Part shown: piece after piece, positions 2,778 to 51,375 of the stretch | How positions within the stretch are numbered: the stretch's first letter is position 1 | How the letters are laid out: every line of letters begins with the position of its first letter | Assembly (NCBI GenBank): GCA_964488565.1 | Contig: CAZAUE010000002.1 | Coordinates: forward strand, 40,048 to 104,047 | DNA: 64,000 nucleotides | From: an uncultured Candidatus Saccharibacteria bacterium | GTDB lineage: Bacteria; Patescibacteriota; Minisyncoccia; 2-02-FULL-40-12; GWA2-44-9 | Direction: 5' to 3' | Notes under the pieces: generated by a model | Databases searched by the model: none | Told to the model about the DNA's origin: nothing | The model's input: only the letters and a program-made list of their open reading frames with translations | Made by a program: the position numbers and the translations under genes

Positions 2778-3239
2778 CTAGGACTTCTGTTCTTGCGATA
2801 TTCTACTCTTGAGACTCATTAGGGCTGAGACAAGGACTTCCAGATTGTCTCTAGTCAGCGTCCAAAGGACGTCGTTTTTAAAATCAAACCATAAATTAAT
2901 TTTTAGTTGATTTTTGCGATTAGTCTTAATACCTAACTGGATTTTCACGGCATCAGCAAAAAAGGTCTTTTTGCTTGTTTTTGATCCCCCATCAACAATG
3001 TACTGTAAATACGGCTGGTAATCACTAAAAGAAAAACCATTACCAGCCACCATAAACACTGCGGCCACCTTATCTCCAACCTTCACCACACTCGAACCGG
3101 ACCGTATACCTTTCTTTATAATCCTTCCGAGGGATTGATGTTGTTCATTTAAATAAGGATTGCGAAAGCACCTTCTTAGGTCAATAACTATCATTCCTCT
3201 TCTTAACTGGCAACGTTGAACTGATTGAGGACTAAACAT
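2778..3239 (-). CDS. hypothetical protein
   Basis: 153-aa ORF with a good coding look (start may be the internal MIVIDLRR). No family recognised by eye. A hairpin agccccgctacgctggggct followed by T-run overlaps the stop on the minus strand. Confidence 0.4.
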   Translation of the reverse strand: MFSPQSVQRCQLRRGMIVIDLRRCFRNPYLNEQHQSLGRIIKKGIRSGSSVVKVGDKVAAVFMVAGNGFSFSDYQPYLQYIVDGGSKTSKKTFFADAVKIQLGIKTNRKNQLKINLWFDFKNDVLWTLTRDNLEVLVSALMSLKSRISQEQKS

Positions 3240-3352: not shown

Positions 3353-4885
3353 TTATGCCAACTCGCTTAGCATCTTCTCATTAATGCGTAGATTTACAGC
3401 TTCGGCCACGTGTTGCTCTTTAATTATCTCAGAACCGTCTAAATCAGCGATAGTGCGGGCAAGCTTCTTGGTTTTATGATATGCCCTTAGTGATTGATTC
3501 TTTGCATTAATAGCTTGTTTGAGCAGATTCTCAGCCTCTTTGGTCAAAATACAGTATTTGTCTATGTTTTTATAATCAATCTCGGAATTATAAAACAAAC
3601 CAGTATTTCTGAACCTAGCCATCTGAATTTCTTTGGCTTTATTGATTTGAGCTTTAATTTCCGCCATTTTTACATTTCCTGAAGGGTAGACCTGTCCAAC
3701 TGTTTCGCGCGGAACATTGATTTGAATGTCTATTCTGTCTAATAACGGCCCAGACACCTTCTTTCTATATTTTAATACTTGAGTAGGGGAGCAGGAGCAA
3801 ATCCCCTTATCCTCGCCAAAATTACCACAGGGACAAGCATTCATAGCGGCCACCAAAGTGAAATTAGCTGGTAGGGTAATTGAGCTAGAGGCCCTAGAAA
3901 CAGAAATGGTGCCTTCTTCAAGGGGTTGCCTTAAGCTTTCTAGGACATTTCTTGGGAATTCCGGAAGTTCATCTAGAAACAAAACACCCCTGTGAGCTAA
4001 GCTTATTTCTCCTGGTTTTGGCCAAGTACCACCACCAACCATTGCTGGAGAAGACGTTGTATGATGCGGGCTTCTAAATGGGCGTTTAAACGAAAGAGGG
4101 GAGTTCTTAAATAGTCCGACTGAACTATAAATCTTGGCAACCTCAATCGCCTCCTCAAAAGACATTTTTGGCAACAACTCAGATAAGGCCTTAGCTAGTA
4201 ATGTTTTTCCTGAACCTGGAGGACCAGACATCAAGATGTTGTGAGCTCCAGCAGCTGCAATAATTAGGGCCCTTTTGGCCGTTTCTTGGCCCTTTATGGA
4301 CAACAATAGACCGTCGTCACCATCTTCAGGAGATTCATTTGTCTTTGCCCGCTCACTAAACAATGGTCGCGTGTTGTTTAAATGACCAACTACTTCTTTA
4401 ATATTCTTTGCCCCAACAACATTAATTCCTTGAACTATTTGCGCCTCAACAAGATTAGAATGGGGGACTATCAACTCTTTAAAACCCTTATTTTTTGCCA
4501 ATATTGCCGTAGCCAACACACCGTTGGTATGCTTTAAAGAGCCGTCTAAAGAAAGCTCGCCAATAAATAATTTTTTAGAGGAATCAAACTGTATTTGTTT
4601 GGTTTCCATCAAATAACCCACGGCAATCGGAAGGTCGTAGGATGGACCTTCTTTTTTAATATCAGCTGGGGCTAGGTTTATAATAATCTTTCTGTGCTTT
4701 GAGTTTGGCGCTGCCAAAGCGCTGTTCTTAATGGCTGAAGCAATCCTGTCTTTGGATTCTTGAACTGCTTTATCGGGAAGTCCGACAATATTAAAAACGT
4801 GAATACCTGGAGTTGAATCAACCTCAACCTCTATGAGTTGCGCGTCTATTCCGCTTATTGCGGAGGAAAAAAGTCTGATGGACAA
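3353..4885 (-). CDS. comM: ComM/YifB family Mg-chelatase-like AAA+ ATPase
   Basis: N-terminal Lon-like domain, Walker A GPPGSGKT, Walker B LFLDELPEF, and a C-terminal segment typical of YifB/ComM. 510 aa. Confidence 0.85.
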   Translation of the reverse strand: MSIRLFSSAISGIDAQLIEVEVDSTPGIHVFNIVGLPDKAVQESKDRIASAIKNSALAAPNSKHRKIIINLAPADIKKEGPSYDLPIAVGYLMETKQIQFDSSKKLFIGELSLDGSLKHTNGVLATAILAKNKGFKELIVPHSNLVEAQIVQGINVVGAKNIKEVVGHLNNTRPLFSERAKTNESPEDGDDGLLLSIKGQETAKRALIIAAAGAHNILMSGPPGSGKTLLAKALSELLPKMSFEEAIEVAKIYSSVGLFKNSPLSFKRPFRSPHHTTSSPAMVGGGTWPKPGEISLAHRGVLFLDELPEFPRNVLESLRQPLEEGTISVSRASSSITLPANFTLVAAMNACPCGNFGEDKGICSCSPTQVLKYRKKVSGPLLDRIDIQINVPRETVGQVYPSGNVKMAEIKAQINKAKEIQMARFRNTGLFYNSEIDYKNIDKYCILTKEAENLLKQAINAKNQSLRAYHKTKKLARTIADLDGSEIIKEQHVAEAVNLRINEKMLSELA

Positions 4886-8060: not shown

Positions 8061-10172
8061 CTATCTGTGCCCCTTCATCGTCAAACTTATCTTTCCTGTG
8101 TCATCTACGGCTTTGACCCAGACGTGGACTTCCTGACCCACCTTCAAAACATCAGTTACTTTGCTTACTCTTTCGTTGCTGATTTCAGATACATGAACCA
8201 TTCCATCTTTGCCAGGCATTATTTCCACAAAGGCCCCGAAGTCTCTGATGCTTACAACTGTGCCATCAAATTCATCTCCAGTTTTTACTTCGTAAGTAAC
8301 CTCGGCGATAAGAGCTAAGGCCTTTTTCATTCCTTCTGGAGTCATAGATGTGACGAATACGGAACCATCATCTTCAATATCTATTTCAGCTCCGGTTTTC
8401 TCAATGATTTCATTAATTACTTTTCCGCCTGGGCCAATAAGGGCTCCTATCTTGGCGGGATTTATTTTCACGGTTTGTATGCGAGGTGCATGAGCTGATA
8501 ATTCAGCTCTCGGAGCAGAAATTGCTTTATTTATAACATCCAAAATTTCCAAGCGAGCCTTAAGGGCTTGCGCTAATGTTTCTTCAACTATTTTGGGAGT
8601 AATACCATCAACTTTTACATCCATCTGCATACCAGTAACACCATCTTTGGTTCCAGCAACTTTCAAGTCCATGTCACCATGATGATCTTCTGGTCCCTGA
8701 ATGTCGGTAAGGATTTTATACTTCTCATTTTTTTCATCAAACATCAATCCCATAGCAATACCGGCAGCAGGGGATTTGATAGGAACTCCACCATCCATTA
8801 ACGCTAGAGTGGAACCGCAAACCGAGGCCATGGATGAAGAACCGTTAGACGATAGAATTTCTGACACCAAACGAATGGTGTAAGGAAATGCGTCTTTGTC
8901 GGGAATTATTGGCTCAAGAGAACGTTCTGCCAAATATCCATGTCCAACCTCTCTGCGTCCAAGGGCACCGACACGTTTTACCTCACCAGTTGAATATGGA
9001 GGAAAGCTGTAATGATGCATAAAGCGCTTCTTTGTAAGATTTATTTCCATGGTTTCAAGCCATTGTTCCATGCCTGGAGCAGCAAGTGTCAAAATAGACA
9101 AAGCTTGTGTTGTTCCCCGATTAAACAATCCTGAACCGTGAACACGAGGAAGAATTGAGGTGTCAGCTGATAGAGCACGAAGTTGATCAATCTTTCTTCC
9201 GTCTGGTCGTTTTCCTTCCTCAAGGACATTCTTGTGAACCATTCGATCTATTTCTTCTTCAAAAATTACGCTTACTTCGCTTAATTTTTTAGCAAGATTA
9301 AGGTCTGCTTCATATGTAGCCTTAAAATGGTCCATGAGTTCAGTCTTAATCTGACCAATTCCTTCATACAATTCGTCCTTGCCTTTGCCAGGTAAATAAA
9401 GAGCAACCCGAAGCTTGTCTTCGGTAAGTTTTCGGACCTCTTCAACTAATGCGACATCATGTACTGCAATAGTAAGCTCTTTCTTTGGTTTTCCGACTTC
9501 GCTCGCAATTTTTTTCTGAAAATCAGTCAATTGTTTGAGGGACTCAAAACCAGCATTGATTGCATCAGACATATCTTTTTCAGGAACGATCTTTGCACCG
9601 GCTTCAATCATGTTAATTCTTGTTTCTGTTCCAGCAACAACAATGTCAAAATCACTCAAAGCTCGTTCGGCATAAGTAGGGTTAAAGATCAGTTTTCCGT
9701 CTACGCGGCCAACACGAACACCAGCAATCGGGCCATCAAAAGGTATGTCGGAAATCATCAACGCAAGAGATGCGCCAAAAAGCGCCACGATATCTGAATC
9801 GTTAACGTAATCAAACGACAAAACTGTTGCAACAACCTGAATTTCGTTTCTGATTTTATTATTAAATCTGGGTCGGAGAGGTCGATCAATTAATCGGCCT
9901 GCAAGTATGGCTTCTTCTGTTGGTCTGCCATCGCGTTTTACCCAATTTGAGCCCTTAATTTTTCCGGCGGCATAATATTTTTCTTCGTACTCAACCTGAA
10001 GAGGGAGGTAGTCAACGGCTTTTTCAGCGTTCGACATGGTGGCATTAACCATAACGGTAGTTTCACCATATTGAACAACACAAACACCATTAGCCTGTCC
10101 ACCGAGACGACCTAATTCGACCTTGAGGGTTTTCCCCGCAAAGTCCATACTATATGTTTTTACTTCTGCCAT
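8061..10172 (-). CDS. pnp: polynucleotide phosphorylase (PNPase)
   Basis: 703 aa with two RNase PH domains, KH and a C-terminal S1 domain (GTVVSIRDFGAFVEI). Classic PNPase order. Confidence 0.95.
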   Translation of the reverse strand: MAEVKTYSMDFAGKTLKVELGRLGGQANGVCVVQYGETTVMVNATMSNAEKAVDYLPLQVEYEEKYYAAGKIKGSNWVKRDGRPTEEAILAGRLIDRPLRPRFNNKIRNEIQVVATVLSFDYVNDSDIVALFGASLALMISDIPFDGPIAGVRVGRVDGKLIFNPTYAERALSDFDIVVAGTETRINMIEAGAKIVPEKDMSDAINAGFESLKQLTDFQKKIASEVGKPKKELTIAVHDVALVEEVRKLTEDKLRVALYLPGKGKDELYEGIGQIKTELMDHFKATYEADLNLAKKLSEVSVIFEEEIDRMVHKNVLEEGKRPDGRKIDQLRALSADTSILPRVHGSGLFNRGTTQALSILTLAAPGMEQWLETMEINLTKKRFMHHYSFPPYSTGEVKRVGALGRREVGHGYLAERSLEPIIPDKDAFPYTIRLVSEILSSNGSSSMASVCGSTLALMDGGVPIKSPAAGIAMGLMFDEKNEKYKILTDIQGPEDHHGDMDLKVAGTKDGVTGMQMDVKVDGITPKIVEETLAQALKARLEILDVINKAISAPRAELSAHAPRIQTVKINPAKIGALIGPGGKVINEIIEKTGAEIDIEDDGSVFVTSMTPEGMKKALALIAEVTYEVKTGDEFDGTVVSIRDFGAFVEIMPGKDGMVHVSEISNERVSKVTDVLKVGQEVHVWVKAVDDTGKISLTMKGHR

Positions 10173-11358: not shown

Positions 11359-12270
11359 ATGGACATTAAGACACTAAAAATCCAATATCTTGAACATCTA
11401 GAAATAGAGAAGAATCGTTCAGCTAAAACCCTTGAGAATTACGGGCGTTATTTGGATAGATTTTTACAATTCGCAAAAGTTTCCAATCCATCAGGAATTA
11501 CCGAAGATTTAATAAGACAGTACCGACTTCACTTAAACCGCCTGAAAGACAAAGAGGGGAACACTCTAAAAAAAGTCACCCAAAACTATCACATCATTGC
11601 CTTAAGAAATTTTTTGAAGTATTTAGCCAAAAGAGATATAAAATCCGTCCCAGCTGAAAAGGTTGAATTAGGAAAACAAGAAGATAGAGAAGTCACATTT
11701 CTTGAGGCTGATGAATTAGAAAGATTATTAAAATCACCCGAAGGAGATAATTTAGACACATTAAGAGACAGGGCTGTTCTTGGTACTTTGTTTAGTACTG
11801 GCATGCGTGTCTCTGAGCTTTGTTCATTGGATAGAAATAAAATAGACACAACTCGAGGAGAGCTAAGCATACGCGGGAAGGGGAGTAAGATTAGGGTGGT
11901 GTTTCTTTCTGATGACGCCAAAGAAGACATCAGTAAATACCTCTCTAAGCGTTCCGACATTGATGAGGCTCTTTTTATTCGAATTCCTAAATCAAAAACT
12001 TTTTCCAAAGACGACAACTTAAGGCTTACCCCACGAAGCATCCAAAGAATAGTTCAAAAATACGCCACCAAATCCGGCATCATGGGAAAGAGTGTCAGCC
12101 CTCACACCTTGCGTCACAGTTATGCCACCGACCTTCTACGCAATGGTGCCGACATCCGCTCCGTTCAGTCAATGCTCGGACACTCATCCGTCACTACAAC
12201 TCAAATCTATACTCACGTTACAGACAAGCAACTTAGAGAAGTGCACAAGAAATTTCATAACAAAAAATGA
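11359..12270 (+). CDS. xerC: tyrosine recombinase XerC/XerD family
   Basis: N-terminal SAM-like domain. Catalytic region with R...HTLRHSYAT...Y (TQIYTHV). 303 aa. Confidence 0.85.
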   Translation: MDIKTLKIQYLEHLEIEKNRSAKTLENYGRYLDRFLQFAKVSNPSGITEDLIRQYRLHLNRLKDKEGNTLKKVTQNYHIIALRNFLKYLAKRDIKSVPAEKVELGKQEDREVTFLEADELERLLKSPEGDNLDTLRDRAVLGTLFSTGMRVSELCSLDRNKIDTTRGELSIRGKGSKIRVVFLSDDAKEDISKYLSKRSDIDEALFIRIPKSKTFSKDDNLRLTPRSIQRIVQKYATKSGIMGKSVSPHTLRHSYATDLLRNGADIRSVQSMLGHSSVTTTQIYTHVTDKQLREVHKKFHNKK

Positions 12271-13612: not shown

Positions 13613-13702
13613 TGTAAAGGTCCTTCTTTGATACTAATTGCTTACAAAAATACCGCATTTAGCGGTATTGGTAAAGGAGGAGGAAGTCTGGGGGGGACTC
13701 GG

Positions 13703-13880
13703 TCACAGATAATTCTTCACTACTGGGGAGGGACTCGCCCACAAGTTGAATTGTCTTCCGACAATTCTCTTGCGGGCCCAGCTCGTGGTTTCGCTCGCCA
13801 ATTGCTCGCGAAACATCACTGCGCTTTTCGAGTCACTACGCGAGCCAAGCAGTTGGCTCGCTCCCTCGGGCTACTGAGTA
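13703..13880. repeat. GC-rich insert downstream of tRNA-Leu carrying a partial duplicate of the tRNA 3' end
   Basis: ctggggagggactcg at 13723-13737 duplicates the tRNA-Leu T-arm and acceptor sequence (13929-13943). It shares the cccagctcgtggttt...aacatcactgcgcttt module with 32470-32530. GC content is far above the flanks. Confidence 0.6.
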
Positions 13881-14007: not shown

Positions 14008-14121
14008 AAACATATTTCTGCCTTAATTTATCATAAATTCCAAATAATATAAACCCTCCTTTACAGCCCTCGGGACTTGTGAGAAAATCTTCTTGCTCTT
14101 TAAAATCAGAGGACTCAAAAA

Positions 14122-14787
14122 GTGTTGGGAACAAAACCATCCAAAAAAGTTATTACTTTTGCCATATCCGACAAGGAATATAAAAAATTTGGCTGTCCTG
14201 TTTGCGGACACGCTACAAGTAAGTGGTCATTCATGGGTGGTGGTGGATTAGTCGTAACATGTAAAAATACTAACTGCGAATCTATTTTTTATATCCTCAT
14301 TGGAAACTTCAAATCTTTTTACGTTAGATTTACCGATAAAACCGGCAAGTGTTTTACCCCAAAACTAGAAACGCATCCACGCAAAAACATACCTGCGTGG
14401 GGTGCAAGAGAGGATAAGAGATCACCAAAGACGGGCGAATTTTTTACGAACCCAAGCCAGTCTGAATATCGACACGGCCTTTGTTTTATTTGCAAAGATG
14501 TTTGCCGACTCCCGATTGACATAGAATGGCCAATGAAAAATCTTTTTTCTGTTAGCTTTAAAACACCCTGCGAAGAAGCGGCAAAAAGAATTCAAAAAAT
14601 CTTTGAAGCAAATGGACTTTGCATAAACACAGTAGGAAGTGGGGAAGAATATCCTCCTTCATTTTATCTTATAAACGTTTCCAGTTGCGTTGCTCACAAA
14701 CCCAATCTCTTAGAACTCCAAAAGGTTGCAAGAGAGAAGGGGGTCATCAACAAGAAAATCCTTTCAAAAATAAAGGCCCTCAAGTAG
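14122..14787 (+). CDS. hypothetical Cys-rich (zinc-finger-like) protein
   Basis: 221 aa with CPVCGH...CKNTNC and further Cys/His clusters. Lies between two tRNA genes. Terminator hairpin at 14788-14820. Confidence 0.4.
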   Translation: MLGTKPSKKVITFAISDKEYKKFGCPVCGHATSKWSFMGGGGLVVTCKNTNCESIFYILIGNFKSFYVRFTDKTGKCFTPKLETHPRKNIPAWGAREDKRSPKTGEFFTNPSQSEYRHGLCFICKDVCRLPIDIEWPMKNLFSVSFKTPCEEAAKRIQKIFEANGLCINTVGSGEEYPPSFYLINVSSCVAHKPNLLELQKVAREKGVINKKILSKIKALK

Positions 14788-16615: not shown

Positions 16616-16761
16616 AGTGATAAATAAGGACAGCCGGTGGCTGTCCTTATTTAGTATCAATGCGTGATAGGGAGGATGAGAAAGGCGGAGCGCTGGCGCG
16701 AGCCGGGGTCGCGGAATTTTTCAGTAGAAAAATATCTGTGACCGAATCCTCCCGTCTCCGC
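16616..16761. repeat. about 145-bp GC-rich insert after tRNA-Ser ending in a 19-bp duplicate of the tRNA 3' end
   Basis: cgaatcctcccgtctccgc at 16597-16615 is repeated at 16743-16761. The insert begins with a terminator hairpin (aaataaggacagccggtggctgtccttattt) and contains the cgcgagccggggtcgcgg module. Confidence 0.65.
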
Positions 16762-31808: not shown

Positions 31809-32399
31809 ATGCTAATAAACAACGACAACCTTATAGAGAGTACCGTCTCGAGCTTGTATCAAGTGTCCGATTTTGAAATTGGAAAACTTACGGTTGCTCA
31901 AGCTTTAGAATATCTTCCTGGATTCGGAGCCGATGCAAACTGGAATATCGTAAAAATAATCATGATAGTGATTAGTGTATTGATTGGGATATTTTGGGTA
32001 AGGATATTATTAAAAACAAGAGAATTGTTTTCCACAAAAACAGACCTCTCCAAAAACCTCTTGCCACCATCAGGTACCACATCGGGATTAGATGCTCGTT
32101 GGGTTGAAATTGAGAAACACATTAACTCAACACGTGAAGCAGAATGGAAATTTGCAGTTATAGAAGCGGACAAATTAACTGACGAATTATTAAAATCATC
32201 TGGATTCCAAGGAGACACAATGGGGGATAGACTGATGAATATTCAACCTGGCCAACTAGTGACCATACAAGGCCTCTGGGAGGCTCACAAGATAAGGAAT
32301 CGCCTGGTTCATGATACTAATTACTTCCTACGCTACACTGAAGCAAAAAGAGCTGTCGGTCTATATGAAAAAACTTTAAAAGAATTACAGGCATTATAA
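31809..32399 (+). CDS. membrane-anchored hypothetical protein with a HEPN-like Rx4H motif
   Basis: Central TM helix (IIMIVISVLIGIFWVRILL). C-terminal AHKIRNRLVHD resembles the HEPN R-x4-6-H motif. Terminator aaactccctttagggagtttt follows. Confidence 0.35.
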   Translation: MLINNDNLIESTVSSLYQVSDFEIGKLTVAQALEYLPGFGADANWNIVKIIMIVISVLIGIFWVRILLKTRELFSTKTDLSKNLLPPSGTTSGLDARWVEIEKHINSTREAEWKFAVIEADKLTDELLKSSGFQGDTMGDRLMNIQPGQLVTIQGLWEAHKIRNRLVHDTNYFLRYTEAKRAVGLYEKTLKELQAL

Positions 32400-32569
32400 A
32401 ACTCCCTTTAGGGAGTTTTATAATCTGGTGGTCACAAGTATTTTTCCTGACGGAAAAATCTCGCGACCCCAGCTCGTGGTTTTTGCCTTTCGCTATCGCT
32501 CAAACAAAAACATCACTGCGCTTTCCAAAAGCTAAAAATCTAAAGCAGTTTAGATTTTCTGACGCTTTG

Positions 32570-32640
32570 TGGACCTACCGAGAGTCGAACTCGGCCCTCT
32601 TCCATGCCATGGAAGCGTAATACCGATTTACTATAGGCCC
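32570..32640 (-). tRNA. tRNA-Ala (anticodon GGC)
   Basis: Acceptor gggccua with a G3:U70 pair (Ala identity), anticodon loop auGGCau, T arm ccgag-ttcgact-ctcgg. Confidence 0.7.
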
Positions 32641-32804
32641 GAACGAGGATGTGGGAATGTTTTACATTCACATCATCCGAGTGAAGGGTATATACCTCTT
32701 GGTATAGGCCCTAATCCCATCAAAACTATACAAACATCATTCTCTTAATTTAATTGAAAAAATACCACAAAAATGCTACTATATCAAGATAAATTAACTT
32801 ATTC

Positions 32805-32876
32805 GCCCTCGTAGTTCAATGGATAGAACAAATCCGTCCTAAGGATAAAATGGGGGTCCGATTCCCTCCGAGGGCA
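32805..32876 (+). tRNA. tRNA-Arg (anticodon CCT)
   Basis: Acceptor gccctcg/cgagggc, D arm with GG, anticodon loop guCCUaa. The T loop reads tccgatt (C at position 55), which is unusual, so confidence is moderate. Confidence 0.55.
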
Positions 32877-33031
32877 CAAATTATGTTACGTTTTACGTAA
32901 AGCAAGTGAACTGCTTCACTTGCGTCAGAATTTGTGAGTTCGGAACTTATGACAGTCAATAGACTGTCATGTGAGAACGGGGTCGCGACCGAGCCAAGCG
33001 ACGGCGAGGCGAGAGTTGTGACCAAAAAGAT

Positions 33032-34465
33032 ATGAAATTACCAGAAGAAGTCCAAAATATAATCAAAAAGCTTCAAGATTCAGGATTTGAGGGGTATGCC
33101 GTGGGTGGCTGTGTCCGAGATTTATTATTGGGCAAAGAACCCAAAGATTGGGACATTACAACCAACGCCAAGCCGGAGGAAATACAAAACATATTTCCTG
33201 AACATGTTTACGAAAACACATTTGGAACCGTAGCGGTTAAAACCGGTTCAGAAAAATCTGAGCTTACTCTTGTTGAAGTTACACCGTATCGCATTGAAGG
33301 CAAATACACGGACAAACGCCATCCTGATGATGTTAAATTTGCCGACAAACTTGAAGACGATTTATCGCGTCGTGATTTTACGGTTAATGCTCTGGCGATG
33401 GATATTGATGGCAAAATCATAGATCTTTTTGATGGCAAAAAAGACTTGAAATCAAAAACAATAAGAACTGTAGGCGAGCCGGAAGAAAGATTTAATGAGG
33501 ATGCTTTGAGGTTGCTACGGGCCGTAAGATTCGCAACAATTCTTGATTTTAAAATAGAAAAGAAAACATTAGAAGCGGTAACCAAAAATTCAGATTGGTT
33601 GATAGCTATATCCAAAGAAAGAATCAGAGATGAGTTTGTTAAAATAATCAATTCTGACAACGCATATGATGGAATTGTACTTCTTAATGAAACAGGGTTA
33701 TTAAAACATATTGTTCCGGAACTATTAGAAGGAATCGGAGTTGGTCAAAACCTTCATCATATTTATACAGTCTGGGAACACAATCTTTTAGCTCTTAAGT
33801 ATGCCGTCAGTAAAAACTACTCACTGGAGGTAAGGCTTGGTTCATTGTTTCATGACATTGGTAAACCTCAAACAAAAAGAGGGGACGGGAAACATTCAAC
33901 CTTTTATGGACATGATGTGGTTGGGGCTAGAATAACCGCTGAGGTAATGGATAGATTAAAGTTCCCCAAAGAAACAGCCGAGAAAGTTATCAAACTTGTC
34001 CGTTACCATCTTTTCTATTACAACGTAGATGAGGTGACCGAATCCTCTGTAAGACGATTATTGGTGAACGTTGGTCCTGAAAACATGAGCGACCTAATAA
34101 AAATACGAGAAGCAGATAGAATTGGTTCAGGGACACCAAAAGCAGTTCCTTATAAATTAAGGCACCTGCAATATATCATTGATAAGGTTTCCCATGACCC
34201 GATTTCTGTAAAAATGTTAAAGGTCGGCGGAGAAGATGTTATAAAGGAACTTAAAACCCAACCAGGACCTAAGGTTGGATTGATTTTAAACTATCTTTTA
34301 GCTGAAGTAATAGATGATCCGTCAAAAAATACAAAAGAATATCTAGAACAAAGAATCCATGAATTAGATAAAGAGTCCCCAGAAGAATTAAAAAAATCAT
34401 TAGAAAAGATAGAGAAGGCGATTGAGGAGGAGGAGAAGGAAAGAATGAAGAAGTATTACGTTTAA
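33032..34465 (+). CDS. cca: CCA-adding tRNA nucleotidyltransferase with C-terminal HD domain
   Basis: Pol-beta NTase motif GGCVRDLLLG..DWDI, RRDFTVNALA, and an HD domain (HHIYTVWEH...FHDIGK). All tRNAs in the window lack an encoded CCA. Confidence 0.85.
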   Translation: MKLPEEVQNIIKKLQDSGFEGYAVGGCVRDLLLGKEPKDWDITTNAKPEEIQNIFPEHVYENTFGTVAVKTGSEKSELTLVEVTPYRIEGKYTDKRHPDDVKFADKLEDDLSRRDFTVNALAMDIDGKIIDLFDGKKDLKSKTIRTVGEPEERFNEDALRLLRAVRFATILDFKIEKKTLEAVTKNSDWLIAISKERIRDEFVKIINSDNAYDGIVLLNETGLLKHIVPELLEGIGVGQNLHHIYTVWEHNLLALKYAVSKNYSLEVRLGSLFHDIGKPQTKRGDGKHSTFYGHDVVGARITAEVMDRLKFPKETAEKVIKLVRYHLFYYNVDEVTESSVRRLLVNVGPENMSDLIKIREADRIGSGTPKAVPYKLRHLQYIIDKVSHDPISVKMLKVGGEDVIKELKTQPGPKVGLILNYLLAEVIDDPSKNTKEYLEQRIHELDKESPEELKKSLEKIEKAIEEEEKERMKKYYV

Positions 34466-34468
34466 TTT

Positions 34469-34540
34469 CGGGCCGTAGTGTAACGGTAACACGCACGATT
34501 CGGGTTCGTGAGACTCCGGGTTCAAATCCCGGCGGCCCGA
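34469..34540 (+). tRNA. tRNA-Pro (anticodon CGG)
   Basis: Acceptor cgggccg/cggcccg, anticodon stem cacga/tcgtg, loop uuCGGgu, T arm ccggg-ttcaaat-cccgg. Confidence 0.75.
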
Positions 34541-34710
34541 CTGGAGCAACGCGAAAGGAGGGGTGCAGCAAACAAACTACTTTGTTTGCGTCGAGAAGTG
34601 AAAAGCGGAGCGATATTTCTCGAACAGTTGGTGAGAGAAATCGCGAGCTGGGCCTGCGACCGAGCCGACGGAAGTCGGCGAGAGTTGTAGGCAAATCCCG
34701 GCGGCCCGAC
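34541..34710. repeat. about 170-bp GC-rich insert after tRNA-Pro ending in a perfect 19-bp duplicate of the tRNA 3' end
   Basis: caaatcccggcggcccgac at 34523-34541 is repeated at 34692-34710. The insert carries the gcgaccgagcc...cggcgagagttgt module shared with 32985-33020. Confidence 0.7.
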
Positions 34711-34720
34711 AAGCATCTGG

Positions 34721-35215
34721 TCAGTTAGGCTTTTTTCTTATTATTATTTTTATAGCTCTTTTCATGGTTTCAAAAATAACTGGAAGTTCAAGATAGTCTA
34801 TAGATATGGCTAGCCATGCAACGATATGGTTCCAGTGACCCACCAAACTTGCGTAACCCAAAACCTGGATAACCATTTCGTCGGTTATCCATAAAATATG
34901 CAACCACTGAACATTCAAGAAAATAAGGAAAAACAAATCTTTCCTGTTTGGTTTAATTTTGTATGATCTTAGATACACCAAAGAAGTTGCCACTATGGCC
35001 GGAATTTCAGTATAATCAACAACCGCTATGGTAGTATTGAAAAGGTGATTAATTAAAAACGGGGCAACGTCAAAAATTCTAGGAATTACCACGTTTGTAG
35101 TCAACCACAGAAGATGAATCAGTTGAATTGAAAATAATGCCCCAGCAAAGACAACATTGAAATCATCATGGTTGTCATACCACCTTAAAAATTTGCGCAC
35201 GATATTAGAAAACAT
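34721..35215 (-). CDS. hypothetical polytopic membrane protein
   Basis: 164 aa, 4-5 predicted TM helices. No recognisable family. Confidence 0.4.
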   Translation of the reverse strand: MFSNIVRKFLRWYDNHDDFNVVFAGALFSIQLIHLLWLTTNVVIPRIFDVAPFLINHLFNTTIAVVDYTEIPAIVATSLVYLRSYKIKPNRKDLFFLIFLNVQWLHILWITDEMVIQVLGYASLVGHWNHIVAWLAISIDYLELPVIFETMKRAIKIIIRKKPN

Positions 35216-35254
35216 TGTTTAAACATAATACCAGAAAAATATTAATTTTCAAAC

Positions 35255-35326
35255 GGGCCCGCCCTCACACCTACTTAGCACTGAGGGCCTCCGGCCCTAA
35301 AGTGTTATTGTGCTAAGTAGGTGTGA
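35255..35326. repeat. 65-bp palindromic insert flanked by a 7-bp direct repeat (gggcccg) at the 5' end of tRNA-Ala(CGC)
   Basis: Perfect 20-bp arms ccctcacacctacttagcac / gtgctaagtaggtgtgaggg (35262-35281 / 35310-35329) with a GC hairpin in the loop. gggcccg at 35255-35261 duplicates the tRNA acceptor 5' strand at 35327-35333. Confidence 0.65.
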
Positions 35327-35397
35327 GGGCCCGTAGTTAAGTGGCATAACGCGACATTCGCATTGTCGAGGCGGGAGTTCGATTCTCCCCGGGTCCA
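35327..35397 (+). tRNA. tRNA-Ala (anticodon CGC)
   Basis: Acceptor gggcccg/cgggucc with G3:U70, anticodon stem cgaca/tgtcg, loop uuCGCau, T arm gggag-ttcgatt-ctccc. Confidence 0.7.
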
Positions 35398-35399
35398 CA

Positions 35400-35424
35400 A
35401 TAAAAACCCCACCTAGGTGGGGTC
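35400..35424 (-). terminator. bidirectional hairpin terminator (CDF gene on minus strand, tRNA-Ala on plus strand)
   Basis: aaaaaccccacctaggtggggtc. The minus-strand reading ends in a U tract. Confidence 0.65.
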
Positions 35425-36354
35425 AGAAGAACATCTTGTCTCAATTGTTAGGTGCACATTTTTTAATTCAGGAAATTCTTCCTGAAGATGAGTCTTAATT
35501 AGGTCGGGGACAGAGTCGTGCAGGGTGTGACTACTAATCAAGACGCTACCACTTAAAACCGTTAGGTCGGAGCTGATTTTGTTTATATGTAAATCTAAAA
35601 CATCACTTACTCCATAAACTTTATTAATTGATGCTGTGACTTTATTAAAATCGATATCTATTGGCACAGCTTCCATTATCATGTTGAAAATTATTTTCGG
35701 AGTTTTTCTAAAACTCCAGATCAACATACCAGCAATCATAATCGCGGCTAAAATATCTACCCAGAATAAACGTTGGTCAATCAAAACAACAACGGAACCG
35801 ATAATAACAGCAACAGAACCTAACGCATCGGTAACAGCACAGGCAATAGCGCTTTTTATTCCTTCTTCTCCGTGACTATGAACACTTAGGGTCTTGAAGA
35901 CCGCTAGATTTACCACAAGTCCGAGTGTGCCGACCAAAAATACCGGCCACGCAAGAATCTCGGTGTGTCCAAACATTAATCGCAAATACGCTTCTCTGAC
36001 AATCCAAAAAATCGCGGTCCCCACCAAAAGAGTGTTGAGAATAATAATTAATAACTCCAAACGACGGAAACCAAAACTTAGATAGCCAACAACCGAATCT
36101 CTTGGGGGAACACTCCTTAATTTATAAACCCAGTAGGTCAGAACCAGAACAAAACCATCAGTGAGCATGTGAATACTATCACCCAACATTGCCAAACTGT
36201 TTGTTAGGTAGCCGGTTATAAATTCAACCGCAAAGTAAGCAAGTGTTATGAAAATACCTTTTTTTAAATCACCCAATTTAAGATGCTCGTGATGTACGTG
36301 TTCATGTCCGTGATGTATATGTACATCTTTTTGTTCCTGAAATGTGCAACTCAT
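35413..36354 (-). CDS. cation diffusion facilitator family divalent-metal efflux transporter
   Basis: Six TM helices, HxxxD metal-binding motifs in TM2/TM5, His-rich N-terminus (HIHHGHEHVHHEH), and a C-terminal cytoplasmic domain. Confidence 0.8.
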   Translation of the reverse strand: MSCTFQEQKDVHIHHGHEHVHHEHLKLGDLKKGIFITLAYFAVEFITGYLTNSLAMLGDSIHMLTDGFVLVLTYWVYKLRSVPPRDSVVGYLSFGFRRLELLIIILNTLLVGTAIFWIVREAYLRLMFGHTEILAWPVFLVGTLGLVVNLAVFKTLSVHSHGEEGIKSAIACAVTDALGSVAVIIGSVVVLIDQRLFWVDILAAIMIAGMLIWSFRKTPKIIFNMIMEAVPIDIDFNKVTASINKVYGVSDVLDLHINKISSDLTVLSGSVLISSHTLHDSVPDLIKTHLQEEFPELKNVHLTIETRCSSDPT

Positions 36355-51125: not shown

Positions 51126-51375
51126 AAGTTTTAGTATACTTTTTATTTCTTGGAGGGTCAACCCCGCCGTTGAAGAGCAGAATTTATAATTATTAACCAA
51201 TTAACCCTAAAATCTCCATTGATTAACTATTTTTTAAAATAAAAAATTTAATTTTATGATTACACTGCTTTTCAACGGCGGGGTCAATATTGTTTTAATA
51301 TTTTCCACTTGTTATACACAATATATCAACTAATTTCTTGTCCCGCTAAATTTTTAACAAGGTATAATAAAACGT

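Follow-up and report, generated by a model that had tools for sequence, protein, structure and literature searches.

The tRNA-Ala(CGC) gene of the 64-kb stretch of DNA analyzed here (64,000 nucleotides, referred to as the window) is preceded by a 72-bp block, at positions 35255-35326, that is missing in its relatives. As judged from alignments, position 35255 is the ancestral start of the tRNA and the 72 bp are a lineage-specific insertion within tRNA nucleotides 1–7. The block is somewhat more probably than otherwise a short foreign segment with perfect 21-bp terminal inverted repeats that was inserted in the 5' acceptor strand of the tRNA gene, that is, an orphan MITE-like hairpin. In kind, it belongs with small palindromic insertions that are flanked by a target repeat; taken by itself, it is a small insertion, probably selfish or accidental.

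The host is a bacterium, as the window encodes GatA, a class II CCA-adding enzyme with an HD domain, UvrD, KsgA, and RnpA. The GC content of the window is about 39%. Contigs identical to the window originate from Rifle groundwater metagenomes, and, among species-representative genomes, those of Candidatus Yanofskybacteria and other Paceibacterota (CPR) are the closest. The tRNA-Ala(CGC) gene, on the + strand at 35327-35398, is intact and lacks an encoded CCA. It was recognized by ARAGORN and by the Rfam tRNA model (65 bits, 35327-35397), and the G3:U70 pair can be read in its acceptor stem. It differs by a single nucleotide from the tRNA of the related locus L090, whereas its differences from that of L121 are confined to the anticodon stem. 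Downstream, a terminator-like hairpin (35405-35424, strand undefined) lies between the tRNA gene and a convergent cation-efflux gene. This hairpin was retrieved both as a minus-strand terminator call and in the inverted repeat listing, and it could act on both strands. A similar hairpin is present 3' of the tRNA in L012.

Upstream, the sole consensus promoter detected by a promoter scan of the region is that of a divergent gene encoding a 164-aa protein (minus strand, 35225-35252, with a -35 box TTGAAA and a -10 box TATTAT with TG). This promoter-like site stops 2 nt short of the block. No consensus promoter for tRNA-Ala(CGC) was detected on the + strand in the scan of the region. The motif AT.ATA.CAGAA is conserved across five species in the alignment, and the conserved ATAAT at 35224-35229 of the + strand is likely the -10 box of the tRNA gene. 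With this -10 box, the transcript would comprise the entire 72-bp block and both copies of the repeat described below.

The block begins with a copy of tRNA nucleotides 1–7, GGGCCCG, on the + strand at 35255-35261, 39 nt from the ATG of the 164-aa gene. The second GGGCCCG, at 35327-35333, consists of tRNA nucleotides 1–7 themselves. The left arm of the inverted repeat, GCCCTCACACCTACTTAGCAC (35261-35281, + strand), is 21-nt long, 100% complementary to the right arm, and unique in the window; it overlaps the final G of the upstream GGGCCCG. It is followed by a spacer of 28 nt (35282-35309), which was found by folding to contain an internal GC hairpin of 6 bp (35284-35289 pairing with 35293-35298) with the loop TCC. 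The right arm, identified by repeat search, occupies 35310-35330, and its final 4 nt are tRNA nucleotides 1–4. The two heptamers and the GC hairpin in the loop had been correctly placed in the initial annotation. The perfection of the arms and the overlap of the right arm with the tRNA were also correctly seen, but the arms are 21-nt long instead of 20, and the overlap extends over four nucleotides instead of three. No arm match was obtained in 100 dinucleotide shuffles of the window.

As GGGCCC is self-complementary, the arms extend into both copies of the repeat and the boundaries of the element are ambiguous, with two equivalent parses. In the first parse, an element of 65 bp (35262-35326) is flanked by a 7-bp duplication, GGGCCCG. 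In the second parse, an element of 70 bp (35261-35330), the ends of which are GCCC...GGGC, is terminated by the 21-bp perfect repeats and flanked by a 2-bp duplication, CC (35259-60 and 35331-32). In the latter case, the tRNA 5' end is rebuilt by the GGGC end of the element, and the arms are terminal, as are the inverted repeats of MITEs and small non-autonomous elements. The geometry initially proposed, with 65 bp and a 7-bp target-site duplication, is therefore valid as one of the two parses and not as the only one. The block that is missing in relatives can itself be drawn in equivalent frames up to 35262-35333. Over a region of 261 nt, no differences were found among 10 independent metagenome assemblies, so that the block is not an assembly artefact. 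The length of the block, 72 bp, is also that of the tRNA gene behind it, which may be a coincidence.

Homologs of the adjacent 164-aa membrane protein were searched, and contigs were fetched for the closest of them (63–74% identity). In L121/L122, L123, L124, and L127, the tRNA-Ala(CGC) gene is divergent from the 164-aa gene as in the window, without the palindrome. The first G of the L121 tRNA is found 39 nt from the ATG, which is the distance of the upstream GGGCCCG in the window, and the same -10 box, TGGTATTAT, precedes both. In the multiple alignment, a single clean gap of 72 nt is present in four out of four relatives (L121, L123, L124, and L127), after which GGGCCCGTAG... is found in every sequence. 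The matching ATG spacing and the 72-nt gap together point to the ancestral start at 35255 and to an insertion inside nucleotides 1–7. The initial proposal that DNA was inserted at the tRNA 5' end and is flanked by a direct repeat is thus upheld by four relatives devoid of the block and by the occurrence of GGGCCCG at the position of the L121 tRNA start. A flanking duplication together with empty sites, here in L121, L123, L124, and L127, is a feature of MITEs, although the length of the duplication is ambiguous.

The element is also absent from tRNA-Ala(CGC) genes of the same type in L013 (second copy), L026, L074, L090, and L121, and from the gene of a different type in L012; none of the other 53 tRNA-Ala(CGC) loci examined has it. 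Contigs retrieved through the exact proteins of the two flanking genes belong to the same population only, with identical spacing, and are mute on presence or absence. A conserved pre-tRNA leader, which the initial annotation had considered as the alternative that would overturn an insertion, was ruled out, since the hairpin is missing in the four syntenic relatives and in the other 53 loci. A fold-back duplication of the ancestral leader was likewise ruled out, as neither arm is ancestral relative to L121. The possibility that the upstream block is a decayed tRNA copy was rejected because its local alignments were not significant in comparison with shuffles: 1779 and 649 of 2000 shuffles scored as well in two tests with the CGC tRNA, and 240 of 2000 in the test with the GGC tRNA.

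Further copies were sought in several collections. No second match to the arms was found in the 64-kb window with up to 3 mismatches, nor, when as many as 4 of the 21 positions were allowed to differ, in a further 9 kb or so of the same 103-kb contig or in the 1.5 Mb of loci fetched from more than 80 related species. The spacer has no second copy in the window and none in viral contigs, and IMG/VR contained nothing real for either the arms or the spacer. The JGI metagenome contigs, a collection that did not return the source locus, yielded 29 single 16-mer matches that could be extended by 0–2 nt at most and lie in unrelated contexts, as expected from chance. No transposase or parent transposon with matching ends was found in the window. 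The search for other copies of the arms, which had been suggested at the outset as a check of a MITE-like origin, therefore counts against a repeated MITE family, but as about 73 kb of a source genome of perhaps 1 Mb were covered, this absence is weak evidence. The multiple related copies that are typical of MITEs are lacking in the window, the 1.5 Mb of loci, JGI, and IMG/VR; within these sequences the element is an orphan: it is not a conserved leader, and no MITE family can be demonstrated.

The consequences of the insertion for the precursor were examined by ensemble folding of 35238-35398. It is predicted that the insert abolishes the canonical acceptor stem, the upstream copy replacing tRNA nucleotides 1–7. 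In the window precursor with the insert, the canonical acceptor pairs have a probability of about 0, and the upstream GGGCCC pairs with the 3' strand with a probability of about 1. The canonical pairs reach 0.93–1.0 when the 72 nt are deleted in silico, as well as when the leader is truncated inside the right arm. In the natural precursor of L121, they have probabilities of 0.91–1.0. The minimum free energy is -78.3 kcal/mol, compared with -63.9 kcal/mol when the canonical stem is forced. The predicted hairpin comprises a perfect duplex of 21 bp (z = -9.3 relative to shuffles), which has the length of at least about 20 bp of double-stranded RNA expected of a hairpin processed by RNase III. The strong secondary structure that had been anticipated for the precursor leader is thus predicted to be even stronger than suggested, the canonical acceptor having a probability close to 0.

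The gene of RnpA, the protein of RNase P, is present on the same contig. The predicted fold would offer RNase P an acceptor helix beginning at 35255. The following course of events is proposed. In the lineage of a Yanofskybacteria-like CPR bacterium, the element would have been inserted in the resident tRNA-Ala(CGC) gene, leaving a direct repeat, which is GGGCCCG for the 65-bp element or CC for the 70-bp element. The repeat, or the GGGC end of the element itself, would rebuild tRNA nucleotides 1–7 downstream, so that a complete tRNA gene survives. In the transcript, the leader hairpin would lock tRNA nucleotides 1–4, and the upstream GGGCCC would pair with the 3' acceptor strand. Because of these two interactions, correct 5' maturation by RNase P would require that the 21-bp duplex first be cleaved or melted, for instance by an enzyme of the RNase III type, as for Correia elements, which are bound and cleaved by RNase III (PMC2649163); RNase P would then mature the 5' end. 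A search of the accessible 73 kb for an RNase III signature (ERLEFLGD-type motif) gave no match, a result that says nothing about the genome as a whole. Insertions elsewhere would destroy the gene, and this may be the reason why an insertion at nucleotides 1–7 persisted. Two points speak against this account. The GCCC/GGGC ends of the element are the same as the target sequence, a likeness that does not follow from a plain transposase model, and the size of the duplication is ambiguous, either 7 or 2 bp.

The predicted effect on the acceptor stem is extreme, all-or-none, and could suggest that the hairpin is a regulatory or processing leader under selection, acting either as an RNase III-dependent switch of the acceptor stem or as an insulation of the divergent promoter. 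The perfection of the arms (21/21), their fixation in 10 of 10 assemblies, and the location of the element 2 nt from the -35 box of the neighboring gene would agree with such a role. This explanation is nevertheless improbable. As the hairpin is missing in four out of four syntenic relatives and in the other 53 tRNA-Ala(CGC) genes examined, there is no conservation or covariation to show selection, and perfect arms fit a recent origin equally well. Moreover, tRNA-Ala(CGC) would probably be dispensable if a UGC isoacceptor exists.

The folding also bears on the idea of a non-canonical tRNA intron or intervening sequence, with a gene starting at 35255 and 72 nt spliced out, in the manner of either archaeal introns with a bulge-helix-bulge (BHB) or bacterial group I introns. 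The duplicated 7 nt formally allow an upstream start, the predicted fold uses the upstream copy, and group I introns are common in tRNAs of Patescibacteria (PMC13011429). However, the genes of the host are bacterial (GatA, class II CCA-adding enzyme, UvrD, and RnpA), and no BHB (3-nt bulge, 4-bp helix, 3-nt bulge) could be drawn around 35255-35333 by inspection. No match to group I or group II introns was found with Rfam at E ≤ 10 in 32300-35500. The insert of 72 nt is far below the size of a ribozyme, and its site is at nucleotides 1–7, whereas the introns known from bacterial tRNAs are located in the anticodon loop. An intron is for these reasons extremely improbable. At gathering thresholds, Rfam returned tRNAs only, and at E ≤ 10 a single spurious match to a miRNA-like hairpin. 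No group I signal was present in L090 and L067, two loci with nested tRNA genes that are described below, and ARAGORN with introns allowed produced chiefly chimeric calls. An archaeal origin with a BHB intron had been suggested by the presence of GC-rich tRNAs without CCA in AT-rich DNA; it was discarded as the genes are bacterial and no BHB can be drawn.

The insertion fits a wider pattern of insertions at tRNA genes in Paceibacterota. When 357 tRNAs from the window and 80 related loci were scanned, 13 of the 267 tRNAs with clean upstream DNA had their own 5' end copied over 7 nt or more within 130 nt, versus 1.05 expected from the prefixes of other tRNAs, so that the repeat is not due to chance. 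Copies of at least 9 nt were found in 8 cases among the same 267 tRNAs, versus 0.25 expected. The upstream copies are 7–24 nt long, and there is no homology among the sequences that separate them from the tRNAs. In six cases, the window's two and four in relatives, the start-to-start spacing of the 5' copies is 71–82 nt, which may be a coincidence. A clear pseudo-tRNA fragment is present upstream in L037. In L068, a terminator-like hairpin belongs to a multi-copy family (stem AGACCCGACCT/AGGTCGGGTCT, at 3171-3203, 3593-3625, 14076-14104, and 14257-14292), one copy of which is located between an 11-nt 5' fragment of tRNA-Leu and the intact tRNA-Leu. In the window, the tRNA-Ala(GGC) gene at 32569-32640(-) has about 104 extra leader nucleotides (~32641-32744) in comparison with L121 and L016, forming two hairpins. 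A 9-nt copy of the 5' end (32703-32711) is found inside this extra DNA, which is therefore not a simple target-site duplication.

Nested tRNA genes were found in several relatives, where a complete tRNA-Ala(CGC) is inserted at position 33/34 of another tRNA-Ala between complementary arms that are specific to each species (L022:5463-5660, L023:5795-5985, L036:11588-11780, L067:13679-13870, L079:1757-1947, and L090:11981-12495). Decayed nested forms are present in L074, L056, and L090, and the outer tRNA genes of some nested loci still look intact. The left arm of the L090 cassette contains a decayed GIY-YIG gene (L090:12037-12291, Pfam 2.7e-15) with one in-frame stop, for which another codon was substituted in the Pfam scan. 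The 294-aa protein encoded between tRNA-Pro and tRNA-Ala(CGC) in L013 (L013:11580-12464) contains an HNH repeat associated with homing endonucleases. The same locus also encodes a protein with a cREC_REC domain (cyclic-phosphate processing receiver domain) between two tRNA-Ala(CGC) copies.

The nested cassettes, the copies of tRNA ends, and the variable orientation of the genes motivate an alternative explanation, in which the block is the recombination scar of a tRNA cassette and not the product of transposition. The resident gene would have been replaced by a fragment of a tandem or circular cassette, with a left crossover via the GGGCCC(G) microhomology and a right crossover inside the tRNA. 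When the order in L090, arm - tRNA - GGGCCC - arm', is permuted circularly, that of the window, GGGCCC - arm' - spacer - arm - tRNA, is obtained, which is also the order expected from such a replacement. The tRNA of L090, which is so close to that of the window, is carried between 17-bp arms with GGGCCC beside the distal arm, and the same arrangement of arm, tRNA-Ala(CGC) of the same type, and arm at 33/34 of an older tRNA-Ala is shared by the other nested cassettes and their decayed forms. The endonuclease-related genes of L090 and L013 would agree with a mobile cassette, as would the arrangement of tRNA-Ala and the 164-aa gene, which is tandem in L126/L027, convergent in L014/L040, and divergent in the window and L121. 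Also in favor, the 5' block of tRNA-Ala(GGC) departs from a simple insertion with a target-site duplication, and among the upstream fragments of relatives, which are 7–24 nt long, some are clear pseudo-tRNA pieces such as in L037. On the other hand, the arms of the window have no similarity to any cassette arm (BLAST E ≥ 1), no 3' remnant of an outer gene is present downstream, collinearity of the spacer with a tRNA is not significant, and the tandem or circular donor is a hypothesis. An insertion is the simpler explanation of the clean 72-bp difference from L121. A cassette scar is consequently regarded as possible but doubtful, and the insertion of a foreign palindromic segment is preferred.

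Two resemblances to cassette arms were followed and dropped. That between the arms of the window and those of the L067 cassette (GCCCTCACACC versus ACCCCCACACC) gave BLAST E ≥ 1. The other concerns an inverted repeat of 20 nt, 95% complementary, at 51161-51284 of the window, in which the start of an arm resembles those of the cassettes. This repeat is unrelated to tRNAs; it encloses an AT-rich spacer of 84 nt upstream of dnaA, with a dnaA-like ORF from 51378, dnaN beyond, and rnpA on the other side. It is probably a replication-origin feature.

Besides the 5' block, a conserved structured element of about 90–170 nt follows five of the seven window tRNAs (Leu, Ser, Ala-GGC, Arg, and Pro), at the T-loop. 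Its copies are located at 13737-13829(-), 16680-16743(+), 32430-32526(-), 32935-33023(+), and 34600-34692(+). Its parts are a hairpin, a stretch antisense to nucleotides ~53-72 of the tRNA that it follows, and a covarying core. The Leu, Ser, and Pro elements end in an exact copy of tRNA nucleotides 56/57-74 (13725-13737, 16743-16761, and 34692-34710), which is 19-nt long for Ser and Pro and 13-nt long for Leu. Across relatives, 22 such end copies were found. In 15 of these 22 cases, the antisense segment matches the T-loop/T-stem of the same tRNA over at least 8 nt, the mean being 7.7 nt versus 3.9 nt with control tRNAs. The sense and antisense segments pair and thereby close the domain of the element. 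In the 5' domain of the core, eight of nine predicted pairs display compensatory double changes, and the presence of G.U pairs in the closing stem indicates that the element is read on the tRNA strand. A covariance model (R1) retrieved 16 copies in 1.25 Mb, 15 of which are located 30–95 nt 3' of a tRNA on the same strand; no Rfam family matches the element. In comparison with L121, L123, L124, and L126, the element of tRNA-Pro is again a lineage-specific insertion, the sequence downstream of its distal 19-nt copy being the ancestral one.

Other sequences are found at the same T-loop site. A two-hairpin module of 31–39 nt occurs exactly at the 56/57 T-loop position of a tRNA 3' fragment, just 3' of the intact cognate tRNA, in L066 (3' of 9745-9818(-) and of 11536-11607(+)), L083 (after 11452-11523), and L071 (after 9194-9267). 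The 3' half of the outer tRNA-Ala in L090 contains a 43-nt insertion at this site. In the window, the sequence at 13690-13724(-), after the tRNA-Leu element and its 13-nt copy, comprises the scaffold end 'atctgtgacc' and then a diverged tRNA-like tail, 'gagtccccccc', as if the scaffold end plus tail had been partially repeated in tandem.

To our knowledge, neither the omega-RNA of TnpB, nor bridge RNAs, retroviral primer-binding sites, or integron attC sites fit the overlapping sense and antisense arms of the T-loop element. The pattern of nested cassettes, self-copies, and T-loop elements at tRNA genes of Paceibacterota was not found in the searchable literature, and the study of group I introns in Patescibacteria (PMC13011429) makes no mention of T-loop insertions, nested tRNAs, or duplicated ends. 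It is conceivable, although unlikely, that the ends of tRNA genes in Paceibacterota are targeted by a process, or a set of elements, not described so far, and that the 72-bp insertion is one of the visible products. Such products would be bracketed by copies of mature termini, namely nucleotides 1–7 here and nucleotides 56/57-74 in the T-loop elements, which also hold the antisense of the same segment. The origin would possibly be RNA-templated or RNA-guided and would not involve a classical transposase or integrase, and the precursors could adopt two alternative tRNA topologies.

The insertion of a foreign palindromic segment, which remains the preferred explanation of the 72-bp block, is of interest as a clean natural insertion inside a tRNA gene, which would have survived thanks to the restoration of the 5' end by the 7-nt repeat. 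In the precursor, the 5' strand of the acceptor stem is present twice; the two copies compete, and the wrong one is predicted to win completely. Testable predictions on RNase P and RNase III follow from this for a CPR bacterium with a minimal RNA-processing machinery. The T-loop element, if it is a guide-like or mobile RNA, would be of wider interest than the 72-bp insertion.

Among known systems, the closest in appearance are MITEs and small palindromic repeats such as the Correia elements (CREE) of Neisseria and the Rickettsia palindromic elements. Like these, the window element is short, with terminal inverted repeats and a flanking direct repeat. It also shares with the Correia and Rickettsia elements the presence or absence in comparison with empty sites, and the co-transcription into a long hairpin that is proposed here. 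CREE are about 100–155 bp long, and the window element is smaller, with 65–70 bp. The Correia and Rickettsia families reach tens to hundreds of copies per genome with a consensus, whereas the window element is single, with no relative found. It also differs from both in having been targeted to the first 7 nt of a tRNA gene and in having ends that match this target. The interaction of CREE with RNase III (PMC2649163) is the likeness that is proposed for the processing of the window element.

The regeneration of a tRNA gene is also reminiscent of integrative elements, although the site differs. Elements with tyrosine integrases use tRNA genes as att sites, with sublocations in the anticodon loop, the T-loop, or the 3' end. 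As in these elements, a direct repeat of a tRNA segment is found at both junctions of the window insert and the tRNA is regenerated, and the inverted half-sites flank a 7-bp shared core as in an attP core. In contrast to them, the insert has neither integrase nor cargo, with only 65 bp between the repeats and 28 nt between the arms; its site is the 5' end of the tRNA and not the 3' half, and the flanks on the tRNA side have no similarity to the arms.

The T4 enzyme SegB is a free-standing GIY-YIG homing endonuclease encoded in a tRNA gene cluster (PMC2330249). A likeness exists in the relatives, where genes of GIY-YIG or HNH type lie in or beside the tRNA-Ala/tRNA-Pro cluster and tRNAs have apparently been replaced as cassettes. 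The window locus differs in having no endonuclease gene, and the link to the 72-bp insertion is circumstantial. The group I introns of Patescibacteria tRNAs are self-splicing ribozymes of at least 200 nt, located in the anticodon loop from 33/34 to 36/37 (PMC13011429). The interruption of tRNA genes in the same phylum is common to both, but the window insert is a 72-bp hairpin at nucleotides 1–7 with no match to an intron model.

A last comparison can be made with the intervening sequences of bacterial 23S rRNA, which are sporadic extended hairpins excised by RNase III. The window insert resembles them as a sporadic extended hairpin in the gene of a structural RNA, probably removed by a nuclease specific for double strands. 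It differs in that the host RNA is a tRNA and the insert carries a duplicate of the 5' strand. Owing to this duplicate, cleavage would release a normal tRNA precursor and not a fragmented RNA.
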